Shown here: positions 11,230 through 55,424 of the stretch, piece by piece | How the letters are laid out: each line of letters starts with the position of its first letter | How positions within the stretch are numbered: position 1 is the stretch's first letter | Program-made: the position numbers and the translations under genes | Assembly: GCA_965224715.1 (NCBI GenBank) | Contig: OZ245054.1 | Coordinates: 906,411 to 970,410, forward strand | Source: Spirochaetota bacterium | Lineage (GTDB): Bacteria; Spirochaetota; UBA12135; COTS27; CAXSBA01 | DNA: 64,000 nt | Direction of reading: 5' to 3' | Notes under the pieces: model-generated | What the model was told of the DNA's origin: nothing | The model's database searches: none | The model's input: only the letters and a program-made list of their open reading frames with translations

Positions 11230-11260
11230 CTTTTCCCCCTGATTTTTTTTCTCTTGTATT

Positions 11261-19940: not shown

Positions 19941-21359
19941 ATGAAAGGCTTGAAATCAAAAAAGAATCTTAATTTAAATAAGTCCTATGATGTATGTATT
20001 GTAGGAGCTGGGGTTGCAGGAACGGTTTTGGCAGCTTTACTATCACGTCTTAACTACCGGATTTTGATTATCGAAAAAAGTTTCAGAGAACAGGAAAAGA
20101 TTATTGGTGAACTTCTTCAGCCAGGAGGAGTGGAGTGTTTAAAAAGTATGGGACTTGGCTTTCTTCTCGAAGAAATTGATGCTCAAGAGGTTGAAGGCTA
20201 TACCCTTTTTCTTAAGGATGAGTTTATCTCTATACCTTATAATCAGGAGAATAATTTGCAAGCCTATGCCTTTAGGAATGTCAAATTTGTTACTCGAGCC
20301 AGACAATATATTAGTACGCTCCCTCAAGTTGATCTGATAGAAGGGAATGTCTGTGATGTCATTATTGAAAATAAAACAATTAAGGGAGTTGTTTATCAAT
20401 ACCAAAATAGAACCATGCATGCCCATGCTAATCTTACCTTTGTCTGTGAAGGGGCGATGCCTAAACTGAAATTAAAAAAAAATCTGGCTTGTGAGAGTAG
20501 AAAAAAGAGCAGTTATTTTGTTGGAACATTGTTGACCGATTGTGAACTTCCAGTAGCTAAAAATGGACATGTCATTTTAACTGGAGAATATCCTATCCTT
20601 ATTTATCCAATTTCTTCTAGTGAGACACGAATTTTAATCGATTTCCCAAAAACTCCTAAAATGGGTCAACAGATGCGAGATCACCTAAAGAGCCAAATCC
20701 GCCCCCATTTACCCGAAACCGTTCTGTCAGCTTTTGATAAAGCTGTGGATAAAGGTAAATTTATAGGAATGCCTAACCAGAATCTTCGTACTTATCCACT
20801 TAAGAATAAGAAAAATGTGGTATTAATAGGTGATAGTTTTAATATGAGGCATCCTCTTACTGGTGGGGGGATGTCGGCAGTATTCAATGATATTAGGAAT
20901 ATTTTTACCTTGATAGCTGGATATTCTGATTTAAGCGATCAAAATAATATTGATAGAATCATAGCTCGTTATTATGACATTAGAGTTCGGGATGTAGCTA
21001 ATATTAATATTCTAGCGGATTCTCTTTATCGAGCTACCCTTGATCCCTATCTTAAAATAGCTAGCTTTAATTATTTAAAACAAGGTAACCATGATGCTAT
21101 CCGAATTTTGGCTGGGATTGATAAAAGTAAATTCAATTTAGTTAAACACTTTGCTAATGTTGTCTCAAATGGAATAAATAAACTTCAGCTTAATAATAGA
21201 AAGAAGATTCAACTACTAGCCAAAGCAAGTGGGATAGTTATCCCGCTTCTTCTACAAGAGGGGAACACAAAGTTTCATAGATGGGGCAAACAATTATTGG
21301 ATAGATTTTTCCCTCCTCACATTAATGCAAAAGCATCTACCCAAAAAAATTCCCCCTGA
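19941..21359 (+). CDS. Squalene monooxygenase (squalene epoxidase, ERG1/SQLE-like, FAD-dependent)
   Basis: YDVCIVGAGVAGTVLAALLS (GxGxxG), IGELLQPGGVECLKSMGL, EIDAQEVEGYTLF and GDSFNMRHPLTGGGMSAVFNDI all parallel eukaryotic SQLE motifs. Confidence 0.8.
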   Translation: MKGLKSKKNLNLNKSYDVCIVGAGVAGTVLAALLSRLNYRILIIEKSFREQEKIIGELLQPGGVECLKSMGLGFLLEEIDAQEVEGYTLFLKDEFISIPYNQENNLQAYAFRNVKFVTRARQYISTLPQVDLIEGNVCDVIIENKTIKGVVYQYQNRTMHAHANLTFVCEGAMPKLKLKKNLACESRKKSSYFVGTLLTDCELPVAKNGHVILTGEYPILIYPISSSETRILIDFPKTPKMGQQMRDHLKSQIRPHLPETVLSAFDKAVDKGKFIGMPNQNLRTYPLKNKKNVVLIGDSFNMRHPLTGGGMSAVFNDIRNIFTLIAGYSDLSDQNNIDRIIARYYDIRVRDVANINILADSLYRATLDPYLKIASFNYLKQGNHDAIRILAGIDKSKFNLVKHFANVVSNGINKLQLNNRKKIQLLAKASGIVIPLLLQEGNTKFHRWGKQLLDRFFPPHINAKASTQKNSP

Positions 21360-23598
21360 ACTTTTCATTAAGAGTTGGAAGTTATTTACTGAAAATGGTC
21401 GTCAATATTGGCGGTATTTACCGACTCAAGATCTTCGTTCTGTATTCAAGAAAAAACGACTTCAAGAAGAAGAAAAATTAAAAGCTCTTTCTCAAGCATT
21501 TGTATATGATAAACATAAATTGCATCATGCTTGTGATTTAGTCTTTCGAAAGTCAAGAAAATTCCACTATCAAACGAAACTCCGTCATCGTTTTCTCTCA
21601 AAAAAATCATCAAATAAGGATTCTGATCATTTAACTAATTTAGTGACGGACTCATTGGTGAGGGGATGGGATTATTTTACATCATTACAAACACAAGAAG
21701 GTCATTTCCCTGGGGACTATGGAGGACCGCTTTTTCTTATGTCTAATTTAGCTCTTCTCTCTTTCACCACCAGCTTTGATTTGGGAAAGCCTCAGGTTAC
21801 CTTGATGAAACGTTATATCTTTAACCATCAAAATCCTGATGGAGGGTGGGGTCTTCATATTGAAGGAGAATCGATCATGTTTACTACCGTAGTTAATTAC
21901 ATTACACTCCGGCTTTGGGGGGAAGATCCTTCTAAGTTAGAGGATGCCCGAAAATGGATCAGGAAGAATGGGGGAGCGGGAGATATCCCCTCATGGGGAA
22001 AATATTTTCTAGCTATGGTGGGGTTATATGAATGGAAAGGCATTGATTCCCTTTCTCCAGAAAGCTGGCTTTTTCCCCGATCTTTTATTTTTTCTCCTTA
22101 TCGTTTATGGTGTCATGCCCGGATGGTTTATCTTCCTCTAAGTTATCTTTATGGGATTCGTTTTAAGCCGAGTAAGAAACAATTATCGATGCCGATCATC
22201 TCTCAGCTTAAAAAGGAAATTTATCTTGAAAACTATGACAGTATAAATTGGATAAAGTTAAGAAAACGATGTTGTCCTCGGGATGAATATTTTCCGGTTT
22301 CTAAAAGGTTTAAGTTATTATCTATGGTTTTGAATTTTTATGAAAAAATTCATCTCTCTTTTTTTCGCAAGAAAGCATTATTGATAATAAGCAAATATAT
22401 CGATAGTGAGGATATCCAAACGGACTTTATCAACATCGGCCCTATCAGTAAGGTGTATAATGCTTTGGTGATTTATTATCGTCTACAGAATGATCCCGCT
22501 AACCCTAAATTGCAACAGTCATGGAAAAGACATTGTGAAAGGATCCAAGATTATCTTTGGGTAGCTGAAGATGGCATGAAGATGAATGGATATAATGGCT
22601 CCCAGTTTTGGGATACCCTATTTACTGGGAAAGCTCTACTTGCCTTACCTAGGAATTTAAAAAAGTATTACCGTAAACCCATGAAACAAATTCAAAGGTT
22701 TTTAAATAATCATAGGCTTGATGAAGGGGGCTGGCCCTTTTCGACGAGACAGCATTCTTGGCCAATTTCAGATTGTAGTGCTGAGGGAGTGATTTATAGT
22801 TTGGCTTTTCATAGGCGAGGCGATATAGATGATTACTCTAGACTTACTAAAAGTGTTAATTTTATATTGGGATTACAAAATCCTGATGGAGGCTGGCCTT
22901 CTTATGAAGTGCAAGGTGGACCTGCTTGGTTAGAATGCCTCAATTCTTCCATGATTTTTGGAGATATTATGGTTGATTATTCTTATGTGGAATGTACTTC
23001 ATCAAATATCCAGGCCTTGGAAAAATTTCATAACTTTTACCCTGATTATCGGAATAAGGAAATTTGTTGTGCGTTAGACAGAGGAAGACAATTTATTATC
23101 TCTAAACAAAAACCCGATGGATCCTGGTATGGGTCATGGGGGATATGCTTTACTTATGGAATTTTTTTTGCGGTAAAAGGTTTAATCGGATTAGACAAAC
23201 CTGCAAGTCGAAAGGCTCTTGTAAGTTCAGCTAAATTTCTATTGAAAAATAGAAATTCTGACGGTAGTTGGGGAGAGTCTTACCTTTCCTCAAGTAAAAA
23301 GATTTATCACAGTACTTCCGGTCAAGCTGTACATACCGCATGGGCAACTCTTTCTCTTCTTCCTCTTATTGAAAAGGGTATCTGTGATGAGTCTTTAATA
23401 CTTGATGAACTTAAAGCTGCAGTAAAAAAGGGGATCGGTTTTCTTATAAATATTCAAAAGAGTGATGGGGATTGGCCACAACCCCATATTACCGGCGTTT
23501 TTAATCAAAACTGTATGATCACTTATACTAACTATCGGAATATTTTTCCTTTATGGGCTTTGGGAGTTTTTCTTGATAGATCAAGTAAGTTTTCATAG
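21325..23598 (+). CDS. Oxidosqualene cyclase (lanosterol/cycloartenol synthase-type triterpene cyclase)
   Basis: 757 aa. GRQYWRY near the N-terminus. MKMNGYNGSQFWDTLF (cf. LSS MKMQGTNGSQIWDTAF). ISDCSAEG (the OSC DCTAE catalytic Asp motif, not the SHC DxDDTA). QW repeats QNPDGGWG, QNPDGGWP, KQKPDGSWYGSWG, NRNSDGSWGES. ATG start overlaps the SQE stop by 35 nt. Confidence 0.85.
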   Translation: MQKHLPKKIPPELFIKSWKLFTENGRQYWRYLPTQDLRSVFKKKRLQEEEKLKALSQAFVYDKHKLHHACDLVFRKSRKFHYQTKLRHRFLSKKSSNKDSDHLTNLVTDSLVRGWDYFTSLQTQEGHFPGDYGGPLFLMSNLALLSFTTSFDLGKPQVTLMKRYIFNHQNPDGGWGLHIEGESIMFTTVVNYITLRLWGEDPSKLEDARKWIRKNGGAGDIPSWGKYFLAMVGLYEWKGIDSLSPESWLFPRSFIFSPYRLWCHARMVYLPLSYLYGIRFKPSKKQLSMPIISQLKKEIYLENYDSINWIKLRKRCCPRDEYFPVSKRFKLLSMVLNFYEKIHLSFFRKKALLIISKYIDSEDIQTDFINIGPISKVYNALVIYYRLQNDPANPKLQQSWKRHCERIQDYLWVAEDGMKMNGYNGSQFWDTLFTGKALLALPRNLKKYYRKPMKQIQRFLNNHRLDEGGWPFSTRQHSWPISDCSAEGVIYSLAFHRRGDIDDYSRLTKSVNFILGLQNPDGGWPSYEVQGGPAWLECLNSSMIFGDIMVDYSYVECTSSNIQALEKFHNFYPDYRNKEICCALDRGRQFIISKQKPDGSWYGSWGICFTYGIFFAVKGLIGLDKPASRKALVSSAKFLLKNRNSDGSWGESYLSSSKKIYHSTSGQAVHTAWATLSLLPLIEKGICDESLILDELKAAVKKGIGFLINIQKSDGDWPQPHITGVFNQNCMITYTNYRNIFPLWALGVFLDRSSKFS

Positions 23599-31994: not shown

Positions 31995-32519
31995 TTTATC
32001 TATATGGAGTGTTGGAAGGAATGTAAAAACCTCCTATTTATATTAGGAGAGGTAAGAGAACTTCTGCAGTATAACGACAACTGACAATAAAAGAGCGAAT
32101 CCTGTATCGTTAGCTGCTCGGGCAAGGCTAGAGATCGCACAGACAACCCGCCTAACCGAAACCCTAGTTCTGTCTTTTCAGATAAGAATATAGTATGAAA
32201 CTAGAGTTTTCCAAGCCAGAAAATGTAATAAGCCTTCCAAATTTAATAGGATTACTGTTGTTAATCTTACGTAAATCCATTTTTCCTGTGTGCATATACA
32301 TTTAACGATGTTTTCTTTTCTGTTGTTCCAAAGCGATACATATACAGGACCTCTATAACCAGCATCCGAAGTTGCAAAAATTTTCCAGCTGCCTATTATT
32401 TCTATAAGATTGCCATTCCACCCATGCGTTTGTCTCTGTGGCCGGGGTCCACGTTATTTACATCCTTGCTGTCAAAAATCAACCCGCTACCGTTATTAAA
32501 ATGGCTTGTCAACCTTGCC

Positions 32520-33013
32520 CTAGAATGGTATAGCTAGAGTTAGTGAAATGAGTCTTAGCGTAATCATGGGGGCATTTATCTTTTGAGCGATAAGCACGTT
32601 GATGGAGTTAGTGCTTAGATGACGTTTTAAAGCTCCCTCTGTCATTTCCGTGGTGGTAGGGGCTGGTTTGTTTGTCTCTTTTACAGCGAGAAGATAGTCG
32701 GATATGTTTTTGTTAGCCTTAATGCTGAACAGCACGTAAGAGTCCCGCACATCGGTGTTGGCTCTTTTGGGGATCTCTGTTACTGTGATTTCGGCCTGAC
32801 TACCTGTTTTTGTTTCGTTATCTGCGGTAACGTTACAAGCAATGATTGAGATTGCTAAGAATACAATGACTGAGAACTGTTTGAGAAGAGAAAGATGTTT
32901 TAGATGTAAACTTTTATTTAGAAGATTTGGGGGGAGGGGGGGTGATTTTACTTGAGGGAGCGATTAACTCTGGGGTTTTAGTTTGCTGTAATTTTAGTTT
33001 TGTTTTTAATTTT
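32520..33013 (-). pseudogene. Frameshifted member of the lipoprotein family. Its promoter and first ~60 nt are near-identical to the gene at 37419..38801
   Basis: ATGAAAAAAATTAAAAAC... carries A7 where the paralog has A6, so a stop follows after 13 codons. A second frame change is needed at the C7TC6 tract (32930-32945). Removing one A and one C restores MKKLKTKLKLQQTKTPELIAPSSKITPPPPNLLNKSLHLKHLSLLKQFSVIVFLAISIIAC(NVT...)...AIPF. Confidence 0.5.
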
Positions 33014-33066
33014 TTTCATTAAATGATCCTTTTGATGAATTTTTAAATAATAATAATATTATAAAT

Positions 33067-33095
33067 ATAATAACATACTAACCGTGATTTGTCAA
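33067..33095 (-). promoter_or_regulatory. Near-consensus sigma70 promoter (TTGACA-17-TATTAT) of the lipoprotein-family cassette
   Basis: Minus strand reads ccccaTTGACAaatcacggttagtatgtTATTATattt, with RBS AAAGGA 7 nt before the ATG. Confidence 0.55.
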
Positions 33096-33257
33096 TGGGG
33101 TTTTTTTTTAACGGTTTACTTAGTTTATGTTTGATGATTGTAAAACCCATCTATAGTATACCTAGAATGTTGTGATTAAGAATAAAAGTTTTCTTTAGTT
33201 TGAGTCATTATATAGTTCTTATCTAAATCAGCAGATGAAAAAAATGACGGATTACTT

Positions 33258-34391
33258 TTACAGTTGAAATGACCAGTAAATTGGTTCATTTGATATGACA
33301 GTATCAGGAGTAACTTCAAAACGATTCCGGATATTATTATGAGACAAATCACTGACTCTAGTGGTGATAACTACAGTATAGACAACCCCCTTCTTCCAGA
33401 GTGCAGTAAATTTCCAGCGACTATCATTTTTATCATGAGTAACTGCAACTTTTGTTTTTTCTTGCGGAAGATTTTGGGGATGAATATAAATCCCATCAAC
33501 AATGGAAAAATAATCCATGCTTTCAGAGAAGACCAAAACCAAAGGATCATTCGATGATTTTGGAACAATACTGGACTGAGGTAAGAAGTGAGGGATTTCA
33601 TAGTCCGGAGCTGTTACCTTATAAGTTTTTTGATAATCGCTGGCTAATTTTCTATAAAAAATATCATGGAAACCTTCTTTATTTATTGTTACAGTATATT
33701 CTTCATCTTTTCTGATTGCCGTTTTTCTGATTTTTCCTTTAAGACTAATTCCTCGTTTTACTCTTCCTGGATGAATCATAATCGGCAAATAATTTTGTAT
33801 ATTTTTTCTCGGTGGTAAAAGAAAACTTGTCCATACATTAGATTGTTTAACTCCATCTGTGTTAAGAAGGTTAACATAAAGAAGACTATCTCGTTTTATT
33901 TCTATAGGAGAAGTGAAAAAGGCATAAAAAGTTAAATGATTTTCAGGGATGCTAGAACCCACGGGATAAAATTCTTTTATTGATACTAATGGTTCATCTG
34001 TTGGGATAAAAGCCGGAGTTTGAAATGTTAGGGTGATTTTGTCTCCATTATTGTTGTTTATTCCCTCAGAAGTCCATTCCACCATAAAATTCCCTTGAGG
34101 CATAAGTGGCGATGCTGGTATAAGGCTTAATTCTTCATTAGAATATGAATAGAAAGAATAAACAGGTAGATCATTCTTCTTTCCTTCAACCATTAAATAC
34201 AACCGTAAGATATCTTCCTTTTTTGATTTTTTCTTTTTCAAAAAAGGAACAGAAATCCGAGGAAGCAAAGGATTCTGAGTATCAAGCTTTATAGATTTAA
34301 CTTCTTTGTTGCAAGAAATAAAAACAAATAAAGCAGTGAACAGAAGACAACCATTTTTCATATTACCATATTTTAATTGTCTACTGAGCAC
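33258..34391 (-). CDS. Putative lipoprotein (hypothetical), overlaps the upstream gene by 11 nt
   Basis: MKNGCLLFTALFVFISCNKE signal and lipobox. No family recognised. Confidence 0.45.
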   Translation of the reverse strand: MLSRQLKYGNMKNGCLLFTALFVFISCNKEVKSIKLDTQNPLLPRISVPFLKKKKSKKEDILRLYLMVEGKKNDLPVYSFYSYSNEELSLIPASPLMPQGNFMVEWTSEGINNNNGDKITLTFQTPAFIPTDEPLVSIKEFYPVGSSIPENHLTFYAFFTSPIEIKRDSLLYVNLLNTDGVKQSNVWTSFLLPPRKNIQNYLPIMIHPGRVKRGISLKGKIRKTAIRKDEEYTVTINKEGFHDIFYRKLASDYQKTYKVTAPDYEIPHFLPQSSIVPKSSNDPLVLVFSESMDYFSIVDGIYIHPQNLPQEKTKVAVTHDKNDSRWKFTALWKKGVVYTVVITTRVSDLSHNNIRNRFEVTPDTVISNEPIYWSFQL

Positions 34392-35685
34392 TTACAGCTT
34401 CTAGCCAAACATTATCTTTATTTTTTAAAGCAAATAATAGTTTTTCTTCGGAATAATAAGGAACACCCGAAATCCATTCCTCCCCGACCTTTAAGGTCGT
34501 TCTTTTATATTCACTTTCTGATAAGTCGGGGAACTGCGATGAGAACTGAGGATCTAATATGTCTACATTTTTACCGGACTTTAAATCATCATTATTATAG
34601 CTCCCGTCAATATACTTTGAACCGATTCTTTCAAAATATCTATCTTCATAAGAGGATAATATAAAATAATAAGTATCTTTTTTACCTGAGACTGTAACTT
34701 CATAGTGAAAAGACTTTTTTGGGTTGTTGAAAGCCATATTAAATGTTTGCACGAAAGTAATTGGATCAAAACTAGAACGAATTTCGGAAGTTGGCAATGA
34801 AAATCCCGGTGAGCAAGTATTTACTCCTGTAAGAAAACTTGTTCCGTCAATAATAGTTACAGACATTTTTTCTACAGGAGCGGATGTACTATATGTTGAG
34901 GGATCTCTTGGCCGGGAACCTGACGTAAATCTTGCTTCCCTATAACCCATACTATTAGTTTGTTGATCATTGGTAATAATAACCTCTTCTTTGTTAAAAG
35001 GAGCCTTTATCCATGCTATTCGAGAGCGTAGCTCCCTTCTATTCCCATAACTTACATATAAATAACTTTCTGCAGTATCCCAAGAAAAATCTATAACCTC
35101 ATCATCTCCAGATTGATGGTTTGTCACATTTATTTTTGCGGTTTTTACTGAACTAAGATCTACTGCTTCAATATTAGTTACATTTTCAGAAATAACTACT
35201 TTATATAACTTCCCCGTATCACCCAAAATGTAAACTCTCTTAGTAATAGGGTCTACTTCAATATTTTTCACCCCAGTGCCAGATCCAGATACAGCTTCAA
35301 GTTTATCTTTAAAATCTGTAGAATTTGAAGACCCGAAACTATCTCCTATATAACCGCTATCGATAGTCCCTGCAATTTCCAATTCTATAATAAAAATATT
35401 AGTCCCATGAGTAGATAAAAAACCTAAAGTATTTCCATATTTATCATTAGCCACTTTAAAGATATTAATATTTTCTTTACTTAAGTCTATGAGAGAATTA
35501 TCACTGAAAACGGAGCCATGGCTAGTTGCAGGAGTATTATCATCATTATCATTCTGTTTAAATACAGTACAACTAGTAATAGTAATCAAACAAATAGCTA
35601 TCATGAGTAAATTAATAAGCCTTTTAAACACTTTTATTATCCCTTTGTTTGGGTAATCTTCTTGAGGTGGTTTTATTTTTTTCAT
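34381..35685 (-). CDS. Putative lipoprotein sharing the family promoter and MKKIK leader
   Basis: MKKIKPPQEDYPNKGIIKVFKRLINLLMIAICLITITSC lipobox. The conserved promoter is at 35724..35752. Confidence 0.5.
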   Translation of the reverse strand: MKKIKPPQEDYPNKGIIKVFKRLINLLMIAICLITITSCTVFKQNDNDDNTPATSHGSVFSDNSLIDLSKENINIFKVANDKYGNTLGFLSTHGTNIFIIELEIAGTIDSGYIGDSFGSSNSTDFKDKLEAVSGSGTGVKNIEVDPITKRVYILGDTGKLYKVVISENVTNIEAVDLSSVKTAKINVTNHQSGDDEVIDFSWDTAESYLYVSYGNRRELRSRIAWIKAPFNKEEVIITNDQQTNSMGYREARFTSGSRPRDPSTYSTSAPVEKMSVTIIDGTSFLTGVNTCSPGFSLPTSEIRSSFDPITFVQTFNMAFNNPKKSFHYEVTVSGKKDTYYFILSSYEDRYFERIGSKYIDGSYNNDDLKSGKNVDILDPQFSSQFPDLSESEYKRTTLKVGEEWISGVPYYSEEKLLFALKNKDNVWLEAVSAQ

Positions 35686-35723
35686 TAAATAATCCTTTTG
35701 ATAAATTTTTAAATAATGATATT

Positions 35724-35752
35724 ATAATAACACATTAACCGTGATTTGTCAA
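35724..35752 (-). promoter_or_regulatory. Conserved family promoter copy (TTGACA-17-TATTAT)
   Basis: Minus strand: cccaTTGACAaatcacggttaatgtgtTATTATaat. Confidence 0.55.
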
Positions 35753-35903
35753 TGGGATTTTGACATAATTTTTTCACTGTGATATAAAAATTTTGTAGAT
35801 GCAGCGACGGCAGAATCGGTTTCATCATAACTTTCTTTATGAAAGACTCTTATTATGAAACCGACTTTGTCTTTGCCATATAACTTATCTTGATAAGAGG
35901 AAA

Positions 35904-37178
35904 TTACAGTTTTTGTTCCCAATTGATACCGTCTGAGGATTTCCATACATCATTATAGCGAGAGCTGCCATCAATTCCACCGATGAGGTATAGTTCATTG
36001 TTAAACACGACTACACTGTGAGCTTGTCTTCCGGAAAACTGAGCTTGGTTAGTCACTTCTGTCCAATCGATACCGTCTGAGGATTTCCATACATCGTTTT
36101 TGAAAGAGCCATCATTTCCAACGATGAGGTATAGTTCATTGTTAAACTTGACTACACTGTGATCGTATCTTCCGGTAAACTGAGCGTTACCAGTCACTTC
36201 TGTCCAATCGATACCGTCTGAGGATTTCCATACATCGTTATAGCGAGTGTTTCCGCCCCCAAATCCACCGATGAGGTATAGTTCATTGTTAAACTCTACT
36301 ACACGGTGACTGTTTCTTTTGGGAAACTGAGCGTTACCAGTCACTTCTGTCCAATCGATACCGTCTGAGGATTTCCATACATCGTTTCTGAAAGAGCCTC
36401 TGCTATGCCCACCGATGAGGTATAGTTCATTGTTAAACTCTACTACACTGGGAGTATTTCTTTCGGAAAACTTAGCTTGAGTGGTAGTCACTTCTGTCCA
36501 GGTAGCACCGTCCGATGATTTCCATATATCATTTAGTTGATTGAAGCCACTACTTTCTCCTCCAATGAGATATAGTTCATTGCTAAACTTGACTAAACTG
36601 TGAAGGTATCTTCCGGAAAACTGAGCATTACCAGTAACTTCTGTCCAGGTAGCACCGTCTGAGGATTTCCATACATCGTTTAGTAGATTGTTGCCGGTAT
36701 CTTGTCCTCCGATGAGGTAGAGTTCATCGTTAAGTTTTACTACACTGTGAGAGTATCTTGCGGAAAAATGATTTACTTTTATGGAAACAGTTCCTGTAAC
36801 CGACCCCTTGTATTGGGGATTATTTTCGGTTACGGTTGCGGTTATGGTGTAAGTATTGGAAAAACCCGGAGCATTGGTTGTTACTGTGATGGTGCCGTTT
36901 GTTAGATTCAGGGTAACTCCATTTGGTAAGGGAGGCTCTACACTGTAGCTGTAGTCGCTATTAGTAGTAGCATCAGAGGGAGTTATGTTGGTTAGCTTAG
37001 CTGTCCTGCTGACTTCGGTTCCGTAATTGACTTGGATATTCTGATAGCTGATGCTACCTGTTATTTGTGTTTTGCCATCTGAGGAATCCGTAGAATTCGT
37101 CTCGGTGCTGCATCCTAAAGTTAGTATAGTCAGGATGGCTGTGAGAGCGATTGTTAATGAGATTTTTATTTTTTTCAT
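35904..37178 (-). CDS. Kelch-repeat beta-propeller lipoprotein (N-terminal Ig-like segment plus 6 Kelch-like blades)
   Basis: MKKIKISLTIALTAILTILTLGCS lipobox, then ~47-aa units repeated 6 times: NNELYLIGG...NDVWKSSDG(A/I)(T/D)WTEVT. Confidence 0.6.
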   Translation of the reverse strand: MKKIKISLTIALTAILTILTLGCSTETNSTDSSDGKTQITGSISYQNIQVNYGTEVSRTAKLTNITPSDATTNSDYSYSVEPPLPNGVTLNLTNGTITVTTNAPGFSNTYTITATVTENNPQYKGSVTGTVSIKVNHFSARYSHSVVKLNDELYLIGGQDTGNNLLNDVWKSSDGATWTEVTGNAQFSGRYLHSLVKFSNELYLIGGESSGFNQLNDIWKSSDGATWTEVTTTQAKFSERNTPSVVEFNNELYLIGGHSRGSFRNDVWKSSDGIDWTEVTGNAQFPKRNSHRVVEFNNELYLIGGFGGGNTRYNDVWKSSDGIDWTEVTGNAQFTGRYDHSVVKFNNELYLIVGNDGSFKNDVWKSSDGIDWTEVTNQAQFSGRQAHSVVVFNNELYLIGGIDGSSRYNDVWKSSDGINWEQKL

Positions 37179-37217
37179 TGAATAAATCCTTTTGATAAAT
37201 TTTTAAATAATGATATT

Positions 37218-37246
37218 ATGATAACACATTAACCATGGTTTGTCAA
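37218..37246 (-). promoter_or_regulatory. Conserved family promoter copy (TTGACA-17-TATCAT)
   Basis: Minus strand: ccctTTGACAaaccatggttaatgtgtTATCATaat. Confidence 0.5.
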
Positions 37247-37418
37247 AGGGCCTTTTTACATGAAATTTTTTCGCTGTGATATGAAAATTTTATGGATTCA
37301 GCGACGACAAAAGAGTTAACGGTTCATCATAATTTTTTCCTTTATTTAGGAAAGAATCAATATTATGGAACCGACTTTGTCGTCGCCATATAACTTGTAT
37401 TACTTCGATAAGAGGAAA

Positions 37419-38801
37419 TTACAGTTTTTGTTCCCAGTCAATACCGTTTGAGGATTTCCATACATCGTTTAGTAGATTGTTGCCGGCCTCTTGTCCACCG
37501 ATGAGGTATAATTCATTATTAAACACGGTTGCACTGTGACCCCGTCTTGCGGAAAACTGAGCTTGACTAGTAACTTCTGTCCAATCGATACCGTCTGAGG
37601 ATTTCCATACATCATTTAGTCGATTGGTGCCATCAAATCCACCGATGAGGTATAGTTCATTATTAAACTCGACTACACTGTGATAGGATCTTTCGGAAAA
37701 CTTAGCTTGAGTGGTAGTCACTTCTGTCCAGGTAGCACTGTCTGAGGATTTCCATATATCGTTTTTGTAAGGGGTTGCGGATGTTCCGCCCTCATATCCA
37801 CCGAAGAGATATAGTTCATTGTTAAACACGACTACATTGTGACTACTTCTTGCGGAAAACTGAGCTTGATTAGTAACTTCTGTCCAAGTAGCACCGTCCG
37901 GTGATTTCCATACATCGTTTTTGTAAGTGATGCCACTATATCCACCGATGAGGTATAGTTCATTGTTAAACACGACTACATTGTGACTATTTCTTGCGGA
38001 AAACTGAGCTTGATTAGTAACTTCTGTCCAAGTAGCACCGTCCGGTGATTTCCATACATCGTTTAGTTGATTGTTGCCGGTATCTTGTCCTCCGATGAGG
38101 TATAGTTCATTATTAAACTTGGTTACATAAGCCCGTCTTGTGGGAAACTGAACTTGATCAGTAACTTTTGTCCAGGTAGCACCGTCCGGTGATTTCCACA
38201 CATCGTTTAGTAGATTGTCGCCGGCCTCTTGTCCTCCGATGAGGTATAATTCATTATTAAGTTCTACTACACTGTGGCCACCTCTTATAGAAAAATGATT
38301 TACTTTTATGGAAACAGTTCCTGTAACCGACCCCTTGTATTGAGGATCATTTTCGGTTACGGTTGCGGTTATGGTGTAAGTGTTGGAAAAACCCGGAGCA
38401 TTGTTTGCTACTGTGATGGTACCGTCTGATGGATTCAGGGTAACTCCATTTGGTAAGGTGGGCTCTACACTGTAGAGGTAGTCGCTATCGATAGCATTAG
38501 AGGGAGTCATATTGGTCAGCTTAGCAGTACTGCTGTCTGTGTTTCCGTAATCGACCTGGATATTCTGATAGCTGATGCTACCTGTTATTTGTGTTTTGTC
38601 AATTGAAGAGTCTGTTTCGGAGTTGCATCCTAAAGTTAATATAGTCAGGATGACCGTGAGAGTGATTGTCATGAGATATCTGAGCCGTGAGCTTTTGTTT
38701 AGATGGATTGAGGGAGAGGGGGGAGGTATTTTGCTTGAGGGAGCGATTAACTCTGGGGTTTTAGTTTGCTGTAATTTTAGTTTTGTTTTTAATTTTTTCA
38801 T
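37419..38801 (-). CDS. Kelch-repeat beta-propeller lipoprotein, paralog of 35904..37178, with a Pro-rich pre-lipobox leader
   Basis: MKKLKTKLKLQQTKTPELIAPSSKIPPPSPSIHLNKSSRLRYLMTITLTVILTILTLGCNS, then the same Ig-like segment (TYTITATVTENDPQYKGSVTGTVSIKVNHF) and 6 Kelch-like repeats. Confidence 0.6.
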   Translation of the reverse strand: MKKLKTKLKLQQTKTPELIAPSSKIPPPSPSIHLNKSSRLRYLMTITLTVILTILTLGCNSETDSSIDKTQITGSISYQNIQVDYGNTDSSTAKLTNMTPSNAIDSDYLYSVEPTLPNGVTLNPSDGTITVANNAPGFSNTYTITATVTENDPQYKGSVTGTVSIKVNHFSIRGGHSVVELNNELYLIGGQEAGDNLLNDVWKSPDGATWTKVTDQVQFPTRRAYVTKFNNELYLIGGQDTGNNQLNDVWKSPDGATWTEVTNQAQFSARNSHNVVVFNNELYLIGGYSGITYKNDVWKSPDGATWTEVTNQAQFSARSSHNVVVFNNELYLFGGYEGGTSATPYKNDIWKSSDSATWTEVTTTQAKFSERSYHSVVEFNNELYLIGGFDGTNRLNDVWKSSDGIDWTEVTSQAQFSARRGHSATVFNNELYLIGGQEAGNNLLNDVWKSSNGIDWEQKL

Positions 38802-38839
38802 TAAATGATCCTTTTGATGAATTTTTAAATAACGATATT

Positions 38840-38868
38840 ATGATAACATATTAACCGTGATTTGTCAA
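38840..38868 (-). promoter_or_regulatory. Conserved family promoter copy (TTGACA-17-TATCAT)
   Basis: Minus strand: ccacTTGACAaatcacggttaatatgtTATCATaat. Confidence 0.5.
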
Positions 38869-39078
38869 GTGGTTTTTTTCTCTCTATATTCTCTGAGTAA
38901 ATCAAAGAACTAAATTCAAGTCATTCATGCGAAATAGAAGCTATGTTAAAATTTATTGAATAAAGTTGTTGTACTTTTTGGAATTTTAATTTCATTGAAG
39001 AAACTAGAAAATAAGAAGTTATCTTGTTAGTTTTTACAGAGTGTTTTATATTTTTGAATAACTGATTATGGAGAAAAA

Positions 39079-42048
39079 ATGAATCATTTAGAGCGATTAA
39101 ACCAACAATACCAGGAAACTGTAAGTAAGTGTAATGAATGCCGTCCTATAAGGAAGTCTAATCAATTTTATGGGGTAGGCCCGATCACCAATTTGGCTCT
39201 TGATGAGATGGATGGTCGAATGAAAAAATTAGAATTCGAAAAGTGGGTAGAGGAGAATTACCTAAAATACGATGACAAAGGAAATCTCATCGGGAATTTT
39301 ACTGTATCCGAACTCAATCGGAGTATGCACAGGGGATATCCTGCCGACAAAATTTTATTGGATATGGTGAGAGGAATTCATAGCTATTTTGAATTTCCCA
39401 AAAAAAACAAAATGGCTATTGGGCTTGGTGGGGGACATAGTGGCTTCACTGTGGCTGCTATGCATCTTATGAACGCTAATGACGAAAAGCAAATCGTCTT
39501 TGTGGACACTCCTAAGCCTGAATCAGAATTGGCATCAGCCGGTGGTTTTTTTAGACAATCCTGGGGCACCCAACTCATGGAAATGCAAAAATATGCCAAA
39601 AAGGGAAATACTGAAAGGATACTGTTTGCCAACAGTGAAGGAACGATCCCACCTGCACGGGAATTAAAGAACAAAGGGGTAAAATTATTTTTTGGAGTTG
39701 GGCACGAAACCACCGGTGCCACAACCTATACCGAAAAAGAAATCGAAAATTTGTTGGAATGGATAGAGGATAATCTGGCAGAACATCATGCGGTAATTGA
39801 TGCTACCTCTTTATTAGGCTCAATGGTATGGAGCAACAAAGTAATCAAACGGCTTTTGGATCGATGCAATATGTTTATGCCTTTCCAAAAAGCTATCGGA
39901 GGTGTGTCTGGTTACTTCAGTTTAGTATTGACCCCAGAAACATTAGCATTAATTGAGAGAAACTTGTCTAATCCATCGTGGGCTGTTCCCCGGCAATTAA
40001 AATTAACACCACCCGATAATCCCAAAAAGCCTCTTTCCGGAACCTACTCAACTAAGATGGGACCTATTTATGATCCGGTAAACGATAGAATGCAGGGTGG
40101 AATCATTAACACCTTCAGTAATTTAGCCCTTGCAGAAACTACATTTGCGATAATCCAGAGTAAGAAAGTCATTGGACCTGTTTCTAAAATGAACGAACGA
40201 TCTTTAAAAAACAGAGCACTTGTTGATAAATGGATTGTCGAAAACGAACTTTTTGAGCATGGGGTAACTACCCCCGAATCCCGTGGGTCTGCGGTTACTT
40301 TATTAAAAGTGAATGACCCTGAAATAACCGACCCAACCATTCACGCCGATATTATTCAAAAAGCCAAACAAATCCTCAGTTATGAAGGGATCACCCATTC
40401 AGACGGTAATCACGAACCCGGACTAGATGCAGCTAGGTATATTAATGCTTTCCCGGGTACTCCAGGAGATTTTCGAGCTTGGATAGGGGGTATCCGTAGT
40501 GAAGATGAAATTAAAACCTTTTTGGAGAATTTAAAGTATGCCTACTTTAAAGCTAAGTCGATTTATCTGGAGGAACAATTAGCAAAAGCTGGAAAAAAAA
40601 TTACCGATCATAATCCATCGAAAGAGACAACTTCCGGAAACAATCCAGAAAAAACATATAAAGTTCTAATCGCTGACTTGGTTGGTCTTAAATTAAATGA
40701 AAACGGACAGCCCGACTGTTCAGAATTAAAACAATATATTGAGGAAAAAGAAGGACGGTTTCACCTTGGCTGTGCCACAGATCATTTGAATCCAGAAAAA
40801 GGGAAGATTCATTTTTATTACTTATCGGATTTAAGCAGGGAGGAAGCAATTCTAAAAGAAACTGAAGCCGGAAAATACGATGCTTTGATAGCTACATCCA
40901 CAAAAATATCGGCAGAATGCAAATTTCCTCTAGGTGGGGTAAGAATTGGAGTGAGCACTGTAAATATGGGCTCAGTTAGTTGGGGTGGTGGAAGTGGTAC
41001 AGGTGGCGAAGCCCCACTTATGAACACTCCTGGACTTAATGGGGGTGTTGCCGCTCATGTTGCTTTCAAAGCTTTACTGAAAGTTCGTTCCGATTTAAAA
41101 TATTCAGAGATACATCAACAGATTATAGCTGGTAACTTCAATGCTGGGAAACATCTTAAAGACTACTCTTATACCCAAATTGAGGGGAAAAAGATGGCCG
41201 TCCTCGGATATGGTAATGTTGGTCGAGAAATGGCTAAACTTGCCTCAGCTTTCAAAATGAATGTGATTGTTTACGCACGACCCATACATCGGGAATGGAT
41301 TGAATCGGAGGGATACGAATACGCTGAAACTGTTTTAGTCGCTGCTACCCATGCCGATGTTCTTTCCTCCCACCTTGGATTGGGGAAACTGGATGCTGCT
41401 ACAGGTAATTTTTCTAATGCAGAGATAATTAATTCCCAAATCCTTTCGGCTATGAATGATGGCGGTGTTTTGATTCATTATGATCACGGAGAACTTGTTG
41501 AGGTCAATGCTCTTGAGAAAGCACTCACTAGTGGAAAACTCTCCCATGTGGCTATCGATGCTGACTTTTTCATTAAGCCGGATAAAAGCCTATCCGGTCA
41601 TCTTGCTCTTTATAGAAAACTCCTGGATCAGTATCCCGATAAATTAGAGTTGCTTTCCCATGCAGTTTTAGACACTGAGCATGCCTCCCGAGTAGAAGGA
41701 GCTAAACAGGCGGTTGATCAAATTATGGATTGTATTCGCACTAAGACGGTTGTAAACCTTGTCGGTGATATGCCACAAGGCTATGTCAACGGGGGGAGTA
41801 AGTCGCTATTGAATATGGGCAAAGCAACCCCGACTGACTTCAAACGACTATCCGATGATGAGTTAAAAAAAATCCGAAAGCTCACAGAAGGTATTTACGC
41901 TTTTTGGAGTTCGATGGAATCGATGAAAGATACAGCTTCAAGAACATCAATTGTTAAAAAATATGCTAAACAGGCAATTCTCGATTCCAATACTTTGGCT
42001 AGCCAACTCAGAAAGTTTGGCCTTACCGGTCCTTTTATTCAGGAATAA
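39079..42048 (+). CDS. Fusion protein: N-terminal phosphoserine-aminotransferase-like (class V aminotransferase, SerC-like) domain plus C-terminal D-2-hydroxyacid dehydrogenase (SerA/PdxB-like) domains
   Basis: N-terminus: KMAIGLGGGHSGFTVAAMHLM (cf. SerC [21 protein letters not shown]), GVGHETTGAT (cf. CPNETIDG), FQKAIGG (PLP-Lys region AQKNIG). C-terminus: KYDALIATSTKISAECKFPLGGVRIGVSTVNMGSV (SerA substrate domain) and KKMAVLGYGNVGREMAKLA (NAD GxGxxG). Confidence 0.5.
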   Translation: MNHLERLNQQYQETVSKCNECRPIRKSNQFYGVGPITNLALDEMDGRMKKLEFEKWVEENYLKYDDKGNLIGNFTVSELNRSMHRGYPADKILLDMVRGIHSYFEFPKKNKMAIGLGGGHSGFTVAAMHLMNANDEKQIVFVDTPKPESELASAGGFFRQSWGTQLMEMQKYAKKGNTERILFANSEGTIPPARELKNKGVKLFFGVGHETTGATTYTEKEIENLLEWIEDNLAEHHAVIDATSLLGSMVWSNKVIKRLLDRCNMFMPFQKAIGGVSGYFSLVLTPETLALIERNLSNPSWAVPRQLKLTPPDNPKKPLSGTYSTKMGPIYDPVNDRMQGGIINTFSNLALAETTFAIIQSKKVIGPVSKMNERSLKNRALVDKWIVENELFEHGVTTPESRGSAVTLLKVNDPEITDPTIHADIIQKAKQILSYEGITHSDGNHEPGLDAARYINAFPGTPGDFRAWIGGIRSEDEIKTFLENLKYAYFKAKSIYLEEQLAKAGKKITDHNPSKETTSGNNPEKTYKVLIADLVGLKLNENGQPDCSELKQYIEEKEGRFHLGCATDHLNPEKGKIHFYYLSDLSREEAILKETEAGKYDALIATSTKISAECKFPLGGVRIGVSTVNMGSVSWGGGSGTGGEAPLMNTPGLNGGVAAHVAFKALLKVRSDLKYSEIHQQIIAGNFNAGKHLKDYSYTQIEGKKMAVLGYGNVGREMAKLASAFKMNVIVYARPIHREWIESEGYEYAETVLVAATHADVLSSHLGLGKLDAATGNFSNAEIINSQILSAMNDGGVLIHYDHGELVEVNALEKALTSGKLSHVAIDADFFIKPDKSLSGHLALYRKLLDQYPDKLELLSHAVLDTEHASRVEGAKQAVDQIMDCIRTKTVVNLVGDMPQGYVNGGSKSLLNMGKATPTDFKRLSDDELKKIRKLTEGIYAFWSSMESMKDTASRTSIVKKYAKQAILDSNTLASQLRKFGLTGPFIQE

Positions 42049-48797: not shown

Positions 48798-51700
48798 ATG
48801 AAAATTCTTGGAATTGATATGGGAATCACTTCTATTGGATGGGGCCTTATTCACTTTAATCCTCGGGAAAGAGAAGAAACTCGAATTATCGATGCCGGGG
48901 TAAGGATTTTTACCAAGGCTGAGCATCCAAAAGATGGATCTTCTCTGGCACTTCCTCGCAGAGAAGCCAGGGGAAGAAGACGAATATTAGTTAGAAAAAG
49001 GGAAAGGATGCAGAAAATCAAGGAGCTATTTATCGAGTATTTTGGTCTTGACCGTGAAAGTCTTTTTGAGATAGGGGATTACGGTTCTGGAACGATTTTT
49101 AAGGAGAAGAAGAAGAGTGATGTTTGGGAACTTAGAGATGCAGCCCTTGAAAGAAAATTAAGTCTAAAGGAGATGGCTAGAGTCCTGACCCATATCGCCA
49201 AACGCAGAGGTTATCATTCCAACAGTAAATCTGATGATTCAGAAAAAGACAAAGGTAAGGTTATTGAAGCGATTAAGGCTAATCAAGAAAATTTAAAAAA
49301 ATTAGGCTATTCTACACCGGGACAAATGATGTATCGGGAATCTCAAAAAAGTAGTTCCAAATCCGGTGATTATTTTTTACGAATTCGAAATACTACCAAT
49401 GATTATCGCCATGTAGTAACTCGGGAAATGCTCCGCGATGAAGTGGAAAAAATTTTTTCTGTTCAGAAAAAATTTTCCAAAAAATATTCTTCAGAGTTAA
49501 AGAACCGGTATTTGGATATAGCCTTTTATCAAAGACCACTCAAATCCAGCGAAGATATGGTAGGACCTTGTACTTTTGAGTCTGATGAAAAAAGGGCTCC
49601 TAAATACAGTTATAGTGCTGAACGATTTGTTTTGCTTGGCAAGATTATCAATACCATGATGATCGATGCCGGTGAAAATAATCGGTATAAAGAAAAGCGT
49701 CTCCTTGACTTCTGTCCGATGGATAAAATTCTTGAAGTCTTTCATGACCAGAAAGAGGTGAAATACCAAACTTTGAGGAAAAATTTAGAGATAGCAGATC
49801 ATCTCAAATTTAAAGATGTCAACTATAACGAGGATCCGGAGAATAAAAAGCTTCCCAAGGTAGATTCTTTTTTTAAAAAAGAGACCTGGTTAGAGAAAGA
49901 TCAAAAAGAACTCTTGACTTATAATGATAAGGAGAATCATTCACACTTTCATAAATGGATCCGAAAATATACGGACATTAGAAGGGCTTTGAAACTTGAT
50001 AAGAATTTTGAATTTATCTCTTTGAAAAGTGATTATAAGAAGCACCCTGAAAGCAAGGAATTCTACTCGCTAAAGGGGTATCATATTTTCAAAAAAGCAT
50101 TATCTTCAGAAGAATTTGAACAGTTTTTTCAAAATCTTTCGGTTTATAATGAGGTAGCTTATATCTTAACCGTAGAGCAAGGAATTAAAGAAATCCGAGA
50201 GCGTTTAGAGTCTATTCCTGGCATTTCCTCCTATATCGATAAGCTGGTCACCATTACGGGCTTTAAGGGATTTAATCATTTGTCCATTAAGGCGATGAAC
50301 AAACTTACCCCTCATCTTAGGGCTGGGAAACGATATGATGAGGCTGCTCGGGAGGTGTATGGACATCACTCGGTTAAAAAGGGAAATCAGGCTGAACTCC
50401 TGAGAATCTTGAATCGAGAAGAGAATTATCAACTTACCAACCCGGTGGTGAAACGGGCCTTCGCTCAATTTCGCAAGGTTGTTAATGCAATAGTCCGAAA
50501 GCATGGTCAGTTTGATAGCCTTCATATTGAACTAGCCCGCGAGCTAAAGCATAGTTACAAGCAACGGCAAGAAATCATACGGGGGCAAAATGAATTTAAA
50601 GGTAACAAGGATGCGGCTAAGGAAAAGTTTATAGAACTCTGTCGCAGAGAACCGGCTGCGAGTGAACTTCTAAAATTTCGTTTGTGGGAGGAACAAGAAG
50701 GGAAATCAGTTTATAGCGGTAAGCCTATCTCTATTAACGAATTGGCAAAAAACGATAAGGCTTTCGAAATTGATCATATTCTTCCTTATAGTCGAACTTT
50801 CGATAATACCCTCAATAACAAAGTTTTGGTGTTAGCAGAAGAGAATCAACATAAGAAAAACCGAACTCCCTTTGAATGGTTGGGAAAGAAAAATGAAGAC
50901 GATCCCTCCTGGCTGGAATTCAAAAGTCGATTATTCAGTTTTAAGAATTTGGGAAAAGCTAAGATTAATAAACTTTTCAATACCACCCTGTCTCAAAAAC
51001 ACGGGGAAGAATTCGATGAAGACGATCCGGAAAGTAATTTTTTCATCAATCGCAATCTCAACGATACTCAGTTCATGGCTAAGTTTATTAAAAATTTTGT
51101 GGAACAGAACCTTAAATTTGCCGATAACCCGGATGTCAAGCAAAAGGTCAAAGTGAGGAATGGGATGGTAACTTCTCATCTTGCCTATCTTTGGGGAATA
51201 GGTCGGGTGATCCAGGAAATCCTTCCTACTGAAAAAGAAGATCGAGATGGAAAAGATCCGACCAAGAAGATTCGAGATAATCACCTCCACCATGCCCTTG
51301 ATGCCCTGGTGATTGCCGCTACCACTCAAAGCGAAGTGCAGCGGATGTCCACTTATTCTGCCCGTTTTGAAGATTATCAGTTCAAAAGTAAGGAGGAGAA
51401 GGAGAAAGTTAAAAAACTGAGAACCTCCACGCCCTTCAATGACGAGGAACTGAAGCGGAAACTCTCGAATATTTTTCCTTCCTATGCTCCCCGTCGTAAG
51501 GTGACCGGAGCCGCCCATGAAGAAACCCTTTACAGTGGAAAAACTTATCAGTCAAAAAACAAATCCAAATTGGTCGGAGCTAGCCTTAAGTACCCGGTAA
51601 AACTCAACCACGGAAAGACCTTGGCTAAAAAAAGTTCCATGCCTCGTATCGATCTCTTCCGTCATGTGGAAAACAAAAAATATTTCATCGTCCCCATCTA

Positions 51701-52097
51701 TGTAGCTGACTTTGTCAAAAAACAACTGCCCAGTCATGCGATTATTGGCGGAAAAGATAAGGAAGGAAACCCCAAACCCTGGTTAGAGATGGATGATAGC
51801 TATGAGTTCATCACTTCCATCTATAAGAACGATCTCATCGAAGTGAAGACAAAGAAGGAAACAGTAAGAGGCTACTTTGATAGCGCTGACAGTAGTACCG
51901 GTACTATCTCTTTAAAATCTCCTCAAACCGGTCATCCTTTTAGGAAAGGTATGGGAATTCAAGGAGCTTTACAAGTTCGTAAATTCGAGGTCTCTCCTCT
52001 TGGTGAAATCCATGAGGTTTCCCTCCCTCAAGATCGGGTGGGAACCCTCCATGAGTTGAGAAGGATCAAGAAAGAAAAAGCAATGGATAAAAACTAA
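48798..52097 (+). CDS. cas9: Cas9 (type II-C size class, 1099 aa)
   Basis: RuvC-I MKILGIDMGITSIGWG. Arg-rich bridge helix RREARGRRRILVRKRER. HNH EIDHILPYSRTFDNTLNNKVLV...NRTPFEW. RuvC-III HHALDALVIAATT. RBS aaaggag lies 6 nt upstream. Confidence 0.95.
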   Translation: MKILGIDMGITSIGWGLIHFNPREREETRIIDAGVRIFTKAEHPKDGSSLALPRREARGRRRILVRKRERMQKIKELFIEYFGLDRESLFEIGDYGSGTIFKEKKKSDVWELRDAALERKLSLKEMARVLTHIAKRRGYHSNSKSDDSEKDKGKVIEAIKANQENLKKLGYSTPGQMMYRESQKSSSKSGDYFLRIRNTTNDYRHVVTREMLRDEVEKIFSVQKKFSKKYSSELKNRYLDIAFYQRPLKSSEDMVGPCTFESDEKRAPKYSYSAERFVLLGKIINTMMIDAGENNRYKEKRLLDFCPMDKILEVFHDQKEVKYQTLRKNLEIADHLKFKDVNYNEDPENKKLPKVDSFFKKETWLEKDQKELLTYNDKENHSHFHKWIRKYTDIRRALKLDKNFEFISLKSDYKKHPESKEFYSLKGYHIFKKALSSEEFEQFFQNLSVYNEVAYILTVEQGIKEIRERLESIPGISSYIDKLVTITGFKGFNHLSIKAMNKLTPHLRAGKRYDEAAREVYGHHSVKKGNQAELLRILNREENYQLTNPVVKRAFAQFRKVVNAIVRKHGQFDSLHIELARELKHSYKQRQEIIRGQNEFKGNKDAAKEKFIELCRREPAASELLKFRLWEEQEGKSVYSGKPISINELAKNDKAFEIDHILPYSRTFDNTLNNKVLVLAEENQHKKNRTPFEWLGKKNEDDPSWLEFKSRLFSFKNLGKAKINKLFNTTLSQKHGEEFDEDDPESNFFINRNLNDTQFMAKFIKNFVEQNLKFADNPDVKQKVKVRNGMVTSHLAYLWGIGRVIQEILPTEKEDRDGKDPTKKIRDNHLHHALDALVIAATTQSEVQRMSTYSARFEDYQFKSKEEKEKVKKLRTSTPFNDEELKRKLSNIFPSYAPRRKVTGAAHEETLYSGKTYQSKNKSKLVGASLKYPVKLNHGKTLAKKSSMPRIDLFRHVENKKYFIVPIYVADFVKKQLPSHAIIGGKDKEGNPKPWLEMDDSYEFITSIYKNDLIEVKTKKETVRGYFDSADSSTGTISLKSPQTGHPFRKGMGIQGALQVRKFEVSPLGEIHEVSLPQDRVGTLHELRRIKKEKAMDKN

Positions 52098-52165
52098 CCA
52101 TAGCTTATCAAAGTCATTAAAGAACCGGGGAGTCAATATCGAGAATTTAACTACCTTTTTTATTA

Positions 52166-55404: not shown

Positions 55405-55424
55405 TCGGAAGGCTTATAAAAAAT

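Follow-up and report, generated by a model that had tools for sequence, protein, structure and literature searches.

Introduction

In Mycoplasma hyorhinis, the Vlp lipoproteins are encoded by clustered genes, each of which has a conserved promoter, 5' untranslated region (UTR) and prolipoprotein signal followed by a divergent repeat body that varies in repeat number; a poly(A) tract in the promoter spacer is the ON/OFF switch. In Neisseria pilC, which carries a poly-G tract in the region coding for the signal peptide, and in the poly-G/C genes of Campylobacter and Helicobacter, a change in tract length shifts the reading frame. The vls and vmp systems of Borrelia exemplify lipoprotein gene conversion in spirochaetes, with one expression site and promoterless silent cassettes. 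The Erp (OspE/F-related, Elp) proteins of Borrelia burgdorferi share a promoter/operator and a leader, the 'upstream homology box' (UHB), ahead of diverse or unrelated mature parts, a pattern which has been ascribed to recombination onto one common promoter/leader sequence, with co-expression as its result (PMC10016077; PMC12242104). Here, we describe five genes and remnants located at ~32.2-38.9 kb of a 64,000-nucleotide (nt) stretch of DNA from a Spirochaetota bacterium (assembly GCA_965224715.1, contig OZ245054.1, positions 906,411 to 970,410 of the forward strand). The whole stretch is called the window, and positions are counted from its first letter. Four copies of a ~95-nt block comprising promoter, 5'UTR and start codon, all on the minus strand, each stand ahead of one gene or remnant of the cluster. 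We interpret this locus as a chromosomal lipoprotein gene cluster whose members share one lineage-specific expression module, a reading to which we assign a probability of about 0.6.

With regard to the Erp/UHB system, the likeness is one of architecture, homology not being implied: the block copies, which are 77-90% identical in pairwise comparison (n = 4, about -47 to +15), precede three unrelated kinds of body. Erp genes, which are regulated by BpaB, BpuR and EbfC at the erp operator, occupy one allelic site on multiple cp32 prophage plasmids, whereas the genes described here are arranged in tandem, seemingly on the chromosome and amid housekeeping genes. As the neighbours of the cluster are housekeeping genes (aldo-keto reductase, asparaginase-like gene, a 989-amino-acid (aa) dehydrogenase fusion, ftsA/ftsZ and fliD), and as no phage or plasmid gene adjoins it, the locus is not cp32-prophage-like. 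The Kelch and other bodies have no stated relation to Erp proteins and are compared with them by architecture only. A further difference is the leader, which here includes a long Lys/Pro-rich extension with a homopolymer-coded tract; to our knowledge, such an extension is not a feature of Erp proteins.

The other systems each share part of this layout. As in the Vlp family, a conserved 5' block precedes each gene, and the paralogues found in one 2.11-Mb relative vary in repeat number. In contrast to Vlp, all four promoter spacers are 17 nt long without a homopolymer, the candidate tract lies in the coding leader, and the bodies are folded Kelch and immunoglobulin (Ig)-like domains, those of Vlp being short charged repeats. 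The intragenic homopolymer genes resemble the locus in having a G/C run in the 5' coding region, and runs of G8-G16 occur on contig L007 (~2x coverage). However, the runs of the window reach only C6 in the intact gene and C7/C6 plus A7 in the pseudogene, a slipping run being ~7-8 nt or more, and the tract is here part of a module common to unrelated genes. Gene conversion between lipoprotein paralogues is a feature in common with vls and vmp, but the conversion signal lies in the 5' module, not in the antigenic body. Moreover, since all four copies have a full promoter, a Shine-Dalgarno (SD) sequence and an ATG, the layout is not that of an expression site with silent cassettes. By analogy, the locus would work like the Erp/UHB and Vlp families, and we file it as a member of none of these systems.

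Surface lipoprotein families that share a promoter and leader are central to the host interaction of Borrelia and Mycoplasma; for uncultured spirochaetes of probably environmental or invertebrate-associated origin, such families have essentially not been described. The module described here is delimited to the nucleotide, stands on at least two unrelated protein families and includes a homopolymer-coded tract at a conserved position. It may also serve as a natural strong promoter, UTR and leader for expression work in this lineage.

The shared promoter and start region

The block corresponds to family D3 in the output of a repeat finder, and its extent was set by a four-way alignment. It starts ~12 nt 5' of TTGACA, with sharp 5' boundaries at about -47, and continues with a 17-nt spacer (AATCACGGTTAATRTGT), TATCAT or TATTAT with a TG extension, an A/T-rich 5'UTR of ~40 nt, AAAGGA, and then ATGAAAAAA. 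Module copy 1 (38787..38880, minus strand) has its -35 element TTGACA at 38868-38863, a -10 element TATCAT ending at 38840, AAAGGA, and an ATG at 38801. In copy 2 (37164..37258, minus), the -35 is at 37246, the -10 ends at 37218 and the ATG is at 37178; the corresponding positions are 35752, 35724 and 35685 in copy 3 (35671..35764, minus), and 33095, 33067 and 33019 in copy 4 (33005..33107, minus), whose ATG is followed by A7. Copy 4 also exhibits a 9-nt insertion directly after the -10. The genes are referred to below by the positions of their start codons.

The 26-nt core of the block gave four matches at up to three mismatches in the 64-kb window, compared with 0.00 expected from shuffles, and no further copy was found anywhere in the window at this threshold; the part comprising UTR, SD and ATG gave three matches at up to two mismatches. 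The four block promoters are the top four sigma-70-like sites in 31.5-39.5 kb, each scoring 11/12 with the TG extension, and their spacers are near-constant in sequence. A sequence-only reading of this DNA had proposed four minus-strand units with the same TTGACA-17-TATTAT/TATCAT-AAAGGA block, and these results confirm it. The same reading considered the next ~40 codons to be related. This holds for the MKK(I/L)K start and the lipobox, which are present in all four copies, but the long 43-codon leader is found only in 38801 and 33019. Gene 37178 is without the long insert, yet has its hydrophobic region and lipobox in common with 38801, and gene 35685 diverges after codon 5. Inspection of the translations gives the lipoboxes LTLGC (38801 and 37178), ITSC (35685), FISC (34361) and IIAC (pseudogene).

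The 5'UTR and early coding region exhibit folding energies (dG) of -2.6 to -6.3 kcal/mol, with z about 0 against shuffles. As this structure is no greater than in shuffles, a riboswitch or thermosensor in the 5'UTR was rejected as unlikely, and efficient initiation is likely. An Rfam scan of the window returned two tRNAs only, and neither the 5' block nor the 3' hairpin described below matches any family. A scan of species-representative genomes, a set in which the species of the window is not included, with the promoter core gave three chance matches, in metagenome-assembled genomes of Omnitrophota and Geobacteraceae. Directly 5' of every TTGACA, including that of a more distant relative (contig L004), lies an A run (A4 to A9) with two to four Cs (e.g. 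33101-33109), which may be a UP-element-like part of the module. The relatives mentioned here and below are contigs from publicly available assemblies (ENA, Logan and NCBI).

The genes behind the block

The bodies behind the block are of three unrelated kinds: Kelch proteins, a protein of no known family, and a second lipoprotein family. Kelch lipoprotein gene 1 (37419..38801, minus; 460 aa) encodes a 43-aa Lys/Pro-rich N-terminal extension (MKKLKTKLKLQQTKTPELIAPSSKIPPPSPSIHLNKSSRLRYL) and a signal peptide ending in LTILTLGC, and its tandem paralogue, Kelch lipoprotein gene 2 (35904..37178, minus; 424 aa), encodes a short canonical signal peptide (MKKIKISLTIALTAILTILTLGC). Each protein comprises one ~100-aa Ig-like module and six Kelch blades. 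The earlier assignment of these two bodies as Kelch beta-propellers is well supported by Pfam, with E values of 1e-34 to 1e-46 (PF24681, 158 and 120 bits for a cut-off of 50; PF01344, 147 and 112 bits for a cut-off of 20.1), and by the PDB matches, which are Kelch propellers.

The 434-aa lipoprotein (34381..35685, minus), which starts with MKKIK and has the lipobox ITSC, has no Pfam or NCBIfam match and is encoded by the first gene of a probable two-gene operon. The second gene (33258..34361, minus) encodes a 367-aa lipoprotein (MKNGCLLFTALFVFISC) with a C-terminal Big_5 Ig-like domain; its ATG at 34361 lies ~20 nt after the upstream stop, and an alternative GTG start is present at 34391. As no promoter-like block is found between the two genes, a two-gene operon is plausible. 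The earlier description of an unrelated 434-aa lipoprotein heading such an operon therefore stands, with the operon graded as probable.

The fourth copy of the block precedes a pseudogene of the second lipoprotein family (32167..33019, minus), whose leader is ~99% identical to that of 38801 and whose lipobox is IIAC. The frame from the ATG at 33019 stops after 13 codons, and the lipobox frame is regained with one base fewer in A7 and one fewer in C7-T-C6 (32929-32942). An exhaustive HMMER search with the in-frame body returned 31 relatives, among them intact lipoproteins with 73-77% identity and a length of 318-363 aa. When these relatives were compared with the window by tblastn, homology ran past the apparent stop at 32520, in other frames, to ~32167, so that the extent of the disrupted gene was moved to this position. 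At least five further frame changes and an internal deletion of ~80 aa are observed. The 33019 copy is decayed, not merely switched off. What had been described as one disrupted short form is indeed disrupted, but it is longer than stated, running from 33019 to ~32167 and not ending at 32520.

Tandem duplication and 5' gene conversion

The two Kelch units are ~84% identical at the nucleotide level from end to end, including 140-155 nt past the stop and the next promoter block. As this identity extends across gene, 3' flank and next promoter, it indicates a 1.5-kb tandem duplication of a unit comprising module, gene and 3' flank. The 3' flank of Kelch gene 1 (37262..37418, minus) contains a long imperfect hairpin at ~37302-37392 and adjoins the next promoter, and that of Kelch gene 2 (35762..35903, minus) contains a hairpin with arms at 35804-35838 and 35842-35876. 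The two flanks are 86-88% identical to each other, and their hairpins have dG values of -31.6 and -37.1 kcal/mol (z = -4.4 and -4.9), in agreement with the conserved 3' flanks with stem-loops that had been noticed earlier. Covariation in the hairpin amounts to one compensatory pair and, with three sequences only, is uninformative. The hairpin would end the transcript, insulate it or stabilize it.

The more distant relative on contig L004, whose protein is 62% identical, has a single Kelch homologue with the same 3' flank and hairpin. A decayed copy of the downstream promoter lies 3' of the conserved hairpin and is a relic of the same tandem layout. Between the Kelch 3' hairpin and this decayed promoter, L004 exhibits repeated inverted-repeat elements (GTGTCTCGAAGAATGTGGAAT ... 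ATTCCACATTCTTCGAGACAC; 11900-12420), and a fragment of an insertion sequence (IS)-like transposase is found just 5' of its Kelch promoter (~9780-9900).

A different pattern is observed between 33019 and 38801, which lie 5.8 kb apart. From the UTR to codon ~25, a stretch of ~115 nt, their identity is ~99%; similarity then drops to ~65% and then to none, in comparison with only ~84% for the tandem Kelch pair. Within the near-identical stretch, indels are confined to the C-rich tract and to the A run, which is A7 in 33019 and A6 in 38801. Since near-identity gives way to unrelated sequence and one partner is decayed, we attribute this pattern to recent 5' gene conversion. The near-identity of 32943..33100 and 38727..38880 that the sequence-only reading reported was thus found over ~115 nt, at ~99%, but the promoters differ by the 9-nt insertion after the -10. 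Its proposal of recent duplication or gene conversion is upheld in both respects, with near-identical 5' ends in one pair and a Kelch tandem duplication in the other.

Contig L005 carries a positional orthologue, the neighbouring 989-aa gene being 89% identical and the upstream intergenic DNA ~87% identical. Its UTR and SD nevertheless differ more from those of the window than the four copies of the window differ from each other. Together with the ~99% identical 5' ends, this pattern indicates within-genome homogenization of the 5' module, i.e., concerted evolution. The direction and timing of conversion between the 5' modules are inferred. The short-read contigs L005 and L006, both from close relatives, end in or just past the block, which is consistent with what a dispersed repeat does to assembly.

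The long leader as a portable unit

The 43-residue Lys/Pro-rich extension of gene 38801 is unusual and is placed between MKK and the hydrophobic signal region. It includes a C-rich tract (38718..38735, minus; CCTCCCCCCTCTCCCTC), whose longest run is C6 and which codes for PPPSPS. The closest homologues of the Kelch proteins are at least 10 paralogues on one 2.11-Mb contig, that of the relative, with 67-70% identity, one to three Ig-like modules and three to seven Kelch blades; most of them carry a homologous extension, e.g., MKKKQLTTKKSELITPLTKITPPPPHQSYLSKSLRFKHL. The same Kelch-type long leader of ~43 aa is present in four intact relatives of the second family (P0243, P0262, P0264 and P0267), of which P0243 starts with MKKLQVTKKSELITPLAKIAPPPPSIHLNKSSQLKYL and continues to IIAC, whereas in remoter members of that family the signal peptide is short and of the ordinary kind. 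As the long leader is found on both Kelch and second-family bodies, the promoter-leader unit is a portable module: within this lineage, the extension, accompanied by its promoter in the window, has been placed on at least two unrelated bodies. The extension is dispensable, since gene 37178, in which MKKIK is joined straight to the same hydrophobic region and lipobox, is without it.

Three other second-family relatives (P0265, P0270 and P0272) exhibit N-terminal tandem penta- or heptapeptide repeats (NRTEQ, PRTENRE and MTQLMQE) before the lipoprotein signal peptide. Found in other lineages, they are simple-sequence repeats of a second type within the pre-signal leader of this family. P0034 (contig L008) was considered as a third example of a leader tract and rejected: no homopolymer is present in it, and the start of its long N-terminus, which lies over a promoter, has probably been mis-called. 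Four Kelch lipoprotein genes (7590-13694), three of them in tandem, are present on contig L007, which comes from a more GC-rich organism (ERZ25067538). They have a near-identical promoter and leader, their bodies form a mosaic of 80-100% identity, and their neighbours are restriction-modification and AAA-ATPase genes. Exact-protein look-ups with the window proteins and with P0008, P0009 and P0002 returned no record, and metagenome scans with a signal-peptide/lipobox pattern and with the L007 leader returned no match. A word-index protein search with the N-terminal 171 aa also gave no match, which reflects a limit of sensitivity and not absence, as the full-length query had matches.

A proposed shared expression module

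In the reading that we favour, the module consists of a sigma-70 promoter of the extended -10 type, close to consensus, an A/T-rich 5'UTR without structure, AAAGGA and the first leader codons, to which its long form adds the ~43-aa Lys/Pro-rich extension before the signal peptide. The cluster would have grown by two routes, namely tandem duplication of the unit formed by module, Kelch gene and 3' hairpin, and gene conversion or recombination that involved the 5' end only and would have placed the same module before unrelated bodies and kept its copies alike. The function of the module would be strong, coordinated transcription, together with efficient translation and export of lipoproteins that are probably located at the surface or in the periplasm, and the 3' hairpins may insulate or stabilize individual transcripts. 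Diversity would arise over evolutionary time through gain, loss, decay and change in repeat number of the paralogues. Promoter activity, co-expression and localization are predicted here from sequence features.

Several points weigh against this interpretation. Promoter strength and co-regulation are deduced from consensus matches only, and the conserved 17-nt spacer could be an operator or merely a sign of recent common ancestry. Surface exposure of the cluster lipoproteins is a prediction. The single-sequence AlphaFold model of the 434-aa protein has a pLDDT (predicted local distance difference test) of 34, which makes it unusable for assigning a role. Finally, simple co-regulation does not explain the recurrent homopolymer-coded leader tract and the frame-shifted intact paralogues of the relative.

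Phase variation and other alternatives

These last features are the reason to consider that the genes are contingency loci, in which slippage of the C run (the Pro tract) and of the A run after the ATG would switch the lipoprotein genes ON and OFF stochastically, the module being the switch cassette. We regard this as a serious alternative or addition to the shared-module reading, though less likely than not for this organism. The tract occupies the same position, after the ATG and ahead of the signal peptide, in two unrelated families and several genomes, where it forms PPPSP, PPPP, PPPPP or up to seven prolines (P0268). However, the only intact long-leader gene of the window has a C6 interrupted by T, which is short for high-frequency slippage, gene 37178 has no tract, and gene 35685 has a different leader. 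G/C runs of at least 7 are rare, with two G7 and one G16 in 64 kb, although short C runs are unremarkable, as CCC accounts for 25% of the Pro codons in the window; for the same reason, CCC bias was set aside as a weak sign of DNA-level selection on the tract. Where 33019 and 38801 are ~99% identical, indels occur in the A run and the C tract only, which favours slippage, but 33019, the copy that is out of frame, carries many other lesions and is a pseudogene, not a clean OFF phase.

The relatives give a similarly divided picture. Two proteins of the 2.11-Mb relative with intact bodies, P0003 (649 aa) and P0010 (397 aa), start with MFLQVRSPPPPP, which is the other leader frame, the equivalent in the window reading LPQVKSPPLPP; this argument depends on protein N-termini picked by the gene caller. 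In P0009, the reading frame changes in the middle of the leader and is regained at the tract, the start of P0007 lies within the lipobox, and three second-family proteins (P0244, P0245 and P0246) start at the lipobox. Lesions among the relatives seem to be concentrated in the leader. The four Kelch lipoprotein genes of L007 have G8, G9TG7, G16 and G15 between the ATG and the signal peptide, but all four are in frame, and the ~2x coverage of the contig makes the run lengths uncertain.

A broader version of this idea, which we consider unlikely, is that a portable switchable cassette, comprising promoter, UTR and an extended leader with a G/C homopolymer, has been spread by 5' conversion onto unrelated lipoprotein genes and would place much of the surface lipoproteome under phase variation, each gene separately, outside the known pathogens. 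In this version, the leader would be constant at the DNA level only in having a G/C homopolymer between start codon and signal peptide, and the bodies concerned would be Kelch propellers, the DVRDSYVLF family and others.

The sequence-only reading had compared the locus to variable surface-protein families of the kind used for antigenic or phase variation. The family aspect is in line with our results, which include a multigene family, unrelated bodies on one module, conversion and duplication, paralogues with varying repeats and a homopolymer-coded tract. Variation itself is less well matched: there is no silent-cassette layout, no homopolymer in the spacers, a C run of only C6, and an out-of-frame copy that is decayed. 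By analogy, a plain co-regulated Erp-like family would account for the window at least as well. Without switching, the cluster would be one more case of 5'-end concerted evolution in a paralogous lipoprotein family.

It is very improbable that the frame disruptions are homopolymer sequencing errors in a fourth gene that is in fact intact. Of the frame changes in the 33019 copy, the first two do fall in A7 and C7 runs, which are typical error sites of some platforms. However, its further frame changes and the ~80-aa deletion lie outside homopolymers, so that sequencing error cannot explain the pseudogene, and no split gene was noticed among the other 38 long open reading frames (ORFs) of the window, which tile cleanly.

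Least credible of all is the alternative that the sequence-only reading had itself raised, in which the block is an outward-facing end of an IS or of a miniature inverted-repeat transposable element, inserted 5' of several genes and supplying their promoter: the multiple copies with sharp 5' boundaries (~-47) and the IS-like and inverted-repeat elements near the L004 Kelch gene would suit it, but no transposase, terminal inverted repeats or target-site duplications are found beside any of the four copies, the block runs into the coding leader with homology that grades with the adjacent gene and 3' flank, it is confined to the cluster within the 64 kb, and the same promoter core is present at the orthologous position in L005 and L006.

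Other features of the window

The longest G/C run of the window by far is a G16 at 2959-2974. The ~690 nt around it (2686-3375), flanked by a permease-like gene and an oxidoreductase gene, contain no long ORF; read along the minus strand, the run comes immediately after an ORF of 31 codons (MGMTYRSAKNYIILAEKENIV...). It could be a phase-variable site or a mobile-element remnant.

That the DNA belongs to a spirochaete-like bacterium is indicated by a FlaB-type flagellin, by FliD (match to NCBIfam PRK06664) and by the lipoboxes. A squalene-synthase-like gene (11261-12271; TIGR01559, E = 2e-34), a flavin adenine dinucleotide (FAD) monooxygenase gene (19941-21359), which overlaps the next gene, and a 2,3-oxidosqualene-cyclase-like gene (21325-23598; TIGR03463, E = 1e-165; 553 bits for a cut-off of 851) possibly belong to a sterol or cyclic-triterpenoid pathway, which would be unusual for a spirochaete-like genome. 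A type II CRISPR (clustered regularly interspaced short palindromic repeats)-Cas system occupies 48798-55405, with Cas9 at 48798-52097 (TIGR01865, E = 4e-198), an ORF at 52166-53077 next to it, and an array at 53521-55405 with a period of ~66 nt and ~28 copies; no trans-activating CRISPR RNA family was returned by the Rfam scan of the window.

The 989-aa fusion next to the cluster (39079-42048) bears the Joint Genome Institute (JGI) name lactate dehydrogenase-like 2-hydroxyacid dehydrogenase/phosphoserine aminotransferase. Two close relatives are 89-90% identical to it, and its other best matches are ~54% identical, the named ones being mostly from marine Proteobacteria (Marinomonas, Aliikangiella and Kiloniella), which suggests that the gene was acquired horizontally. 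Finally, a 534-aa ORF (58612-60216) combines an Rrf2-family regulator domain (residues 4-137) with a phosphonate-type ATP-binding cassette (ABC) substrate-binding domain (residues 214-496) and represents either an unusual fusion or a missed stop.

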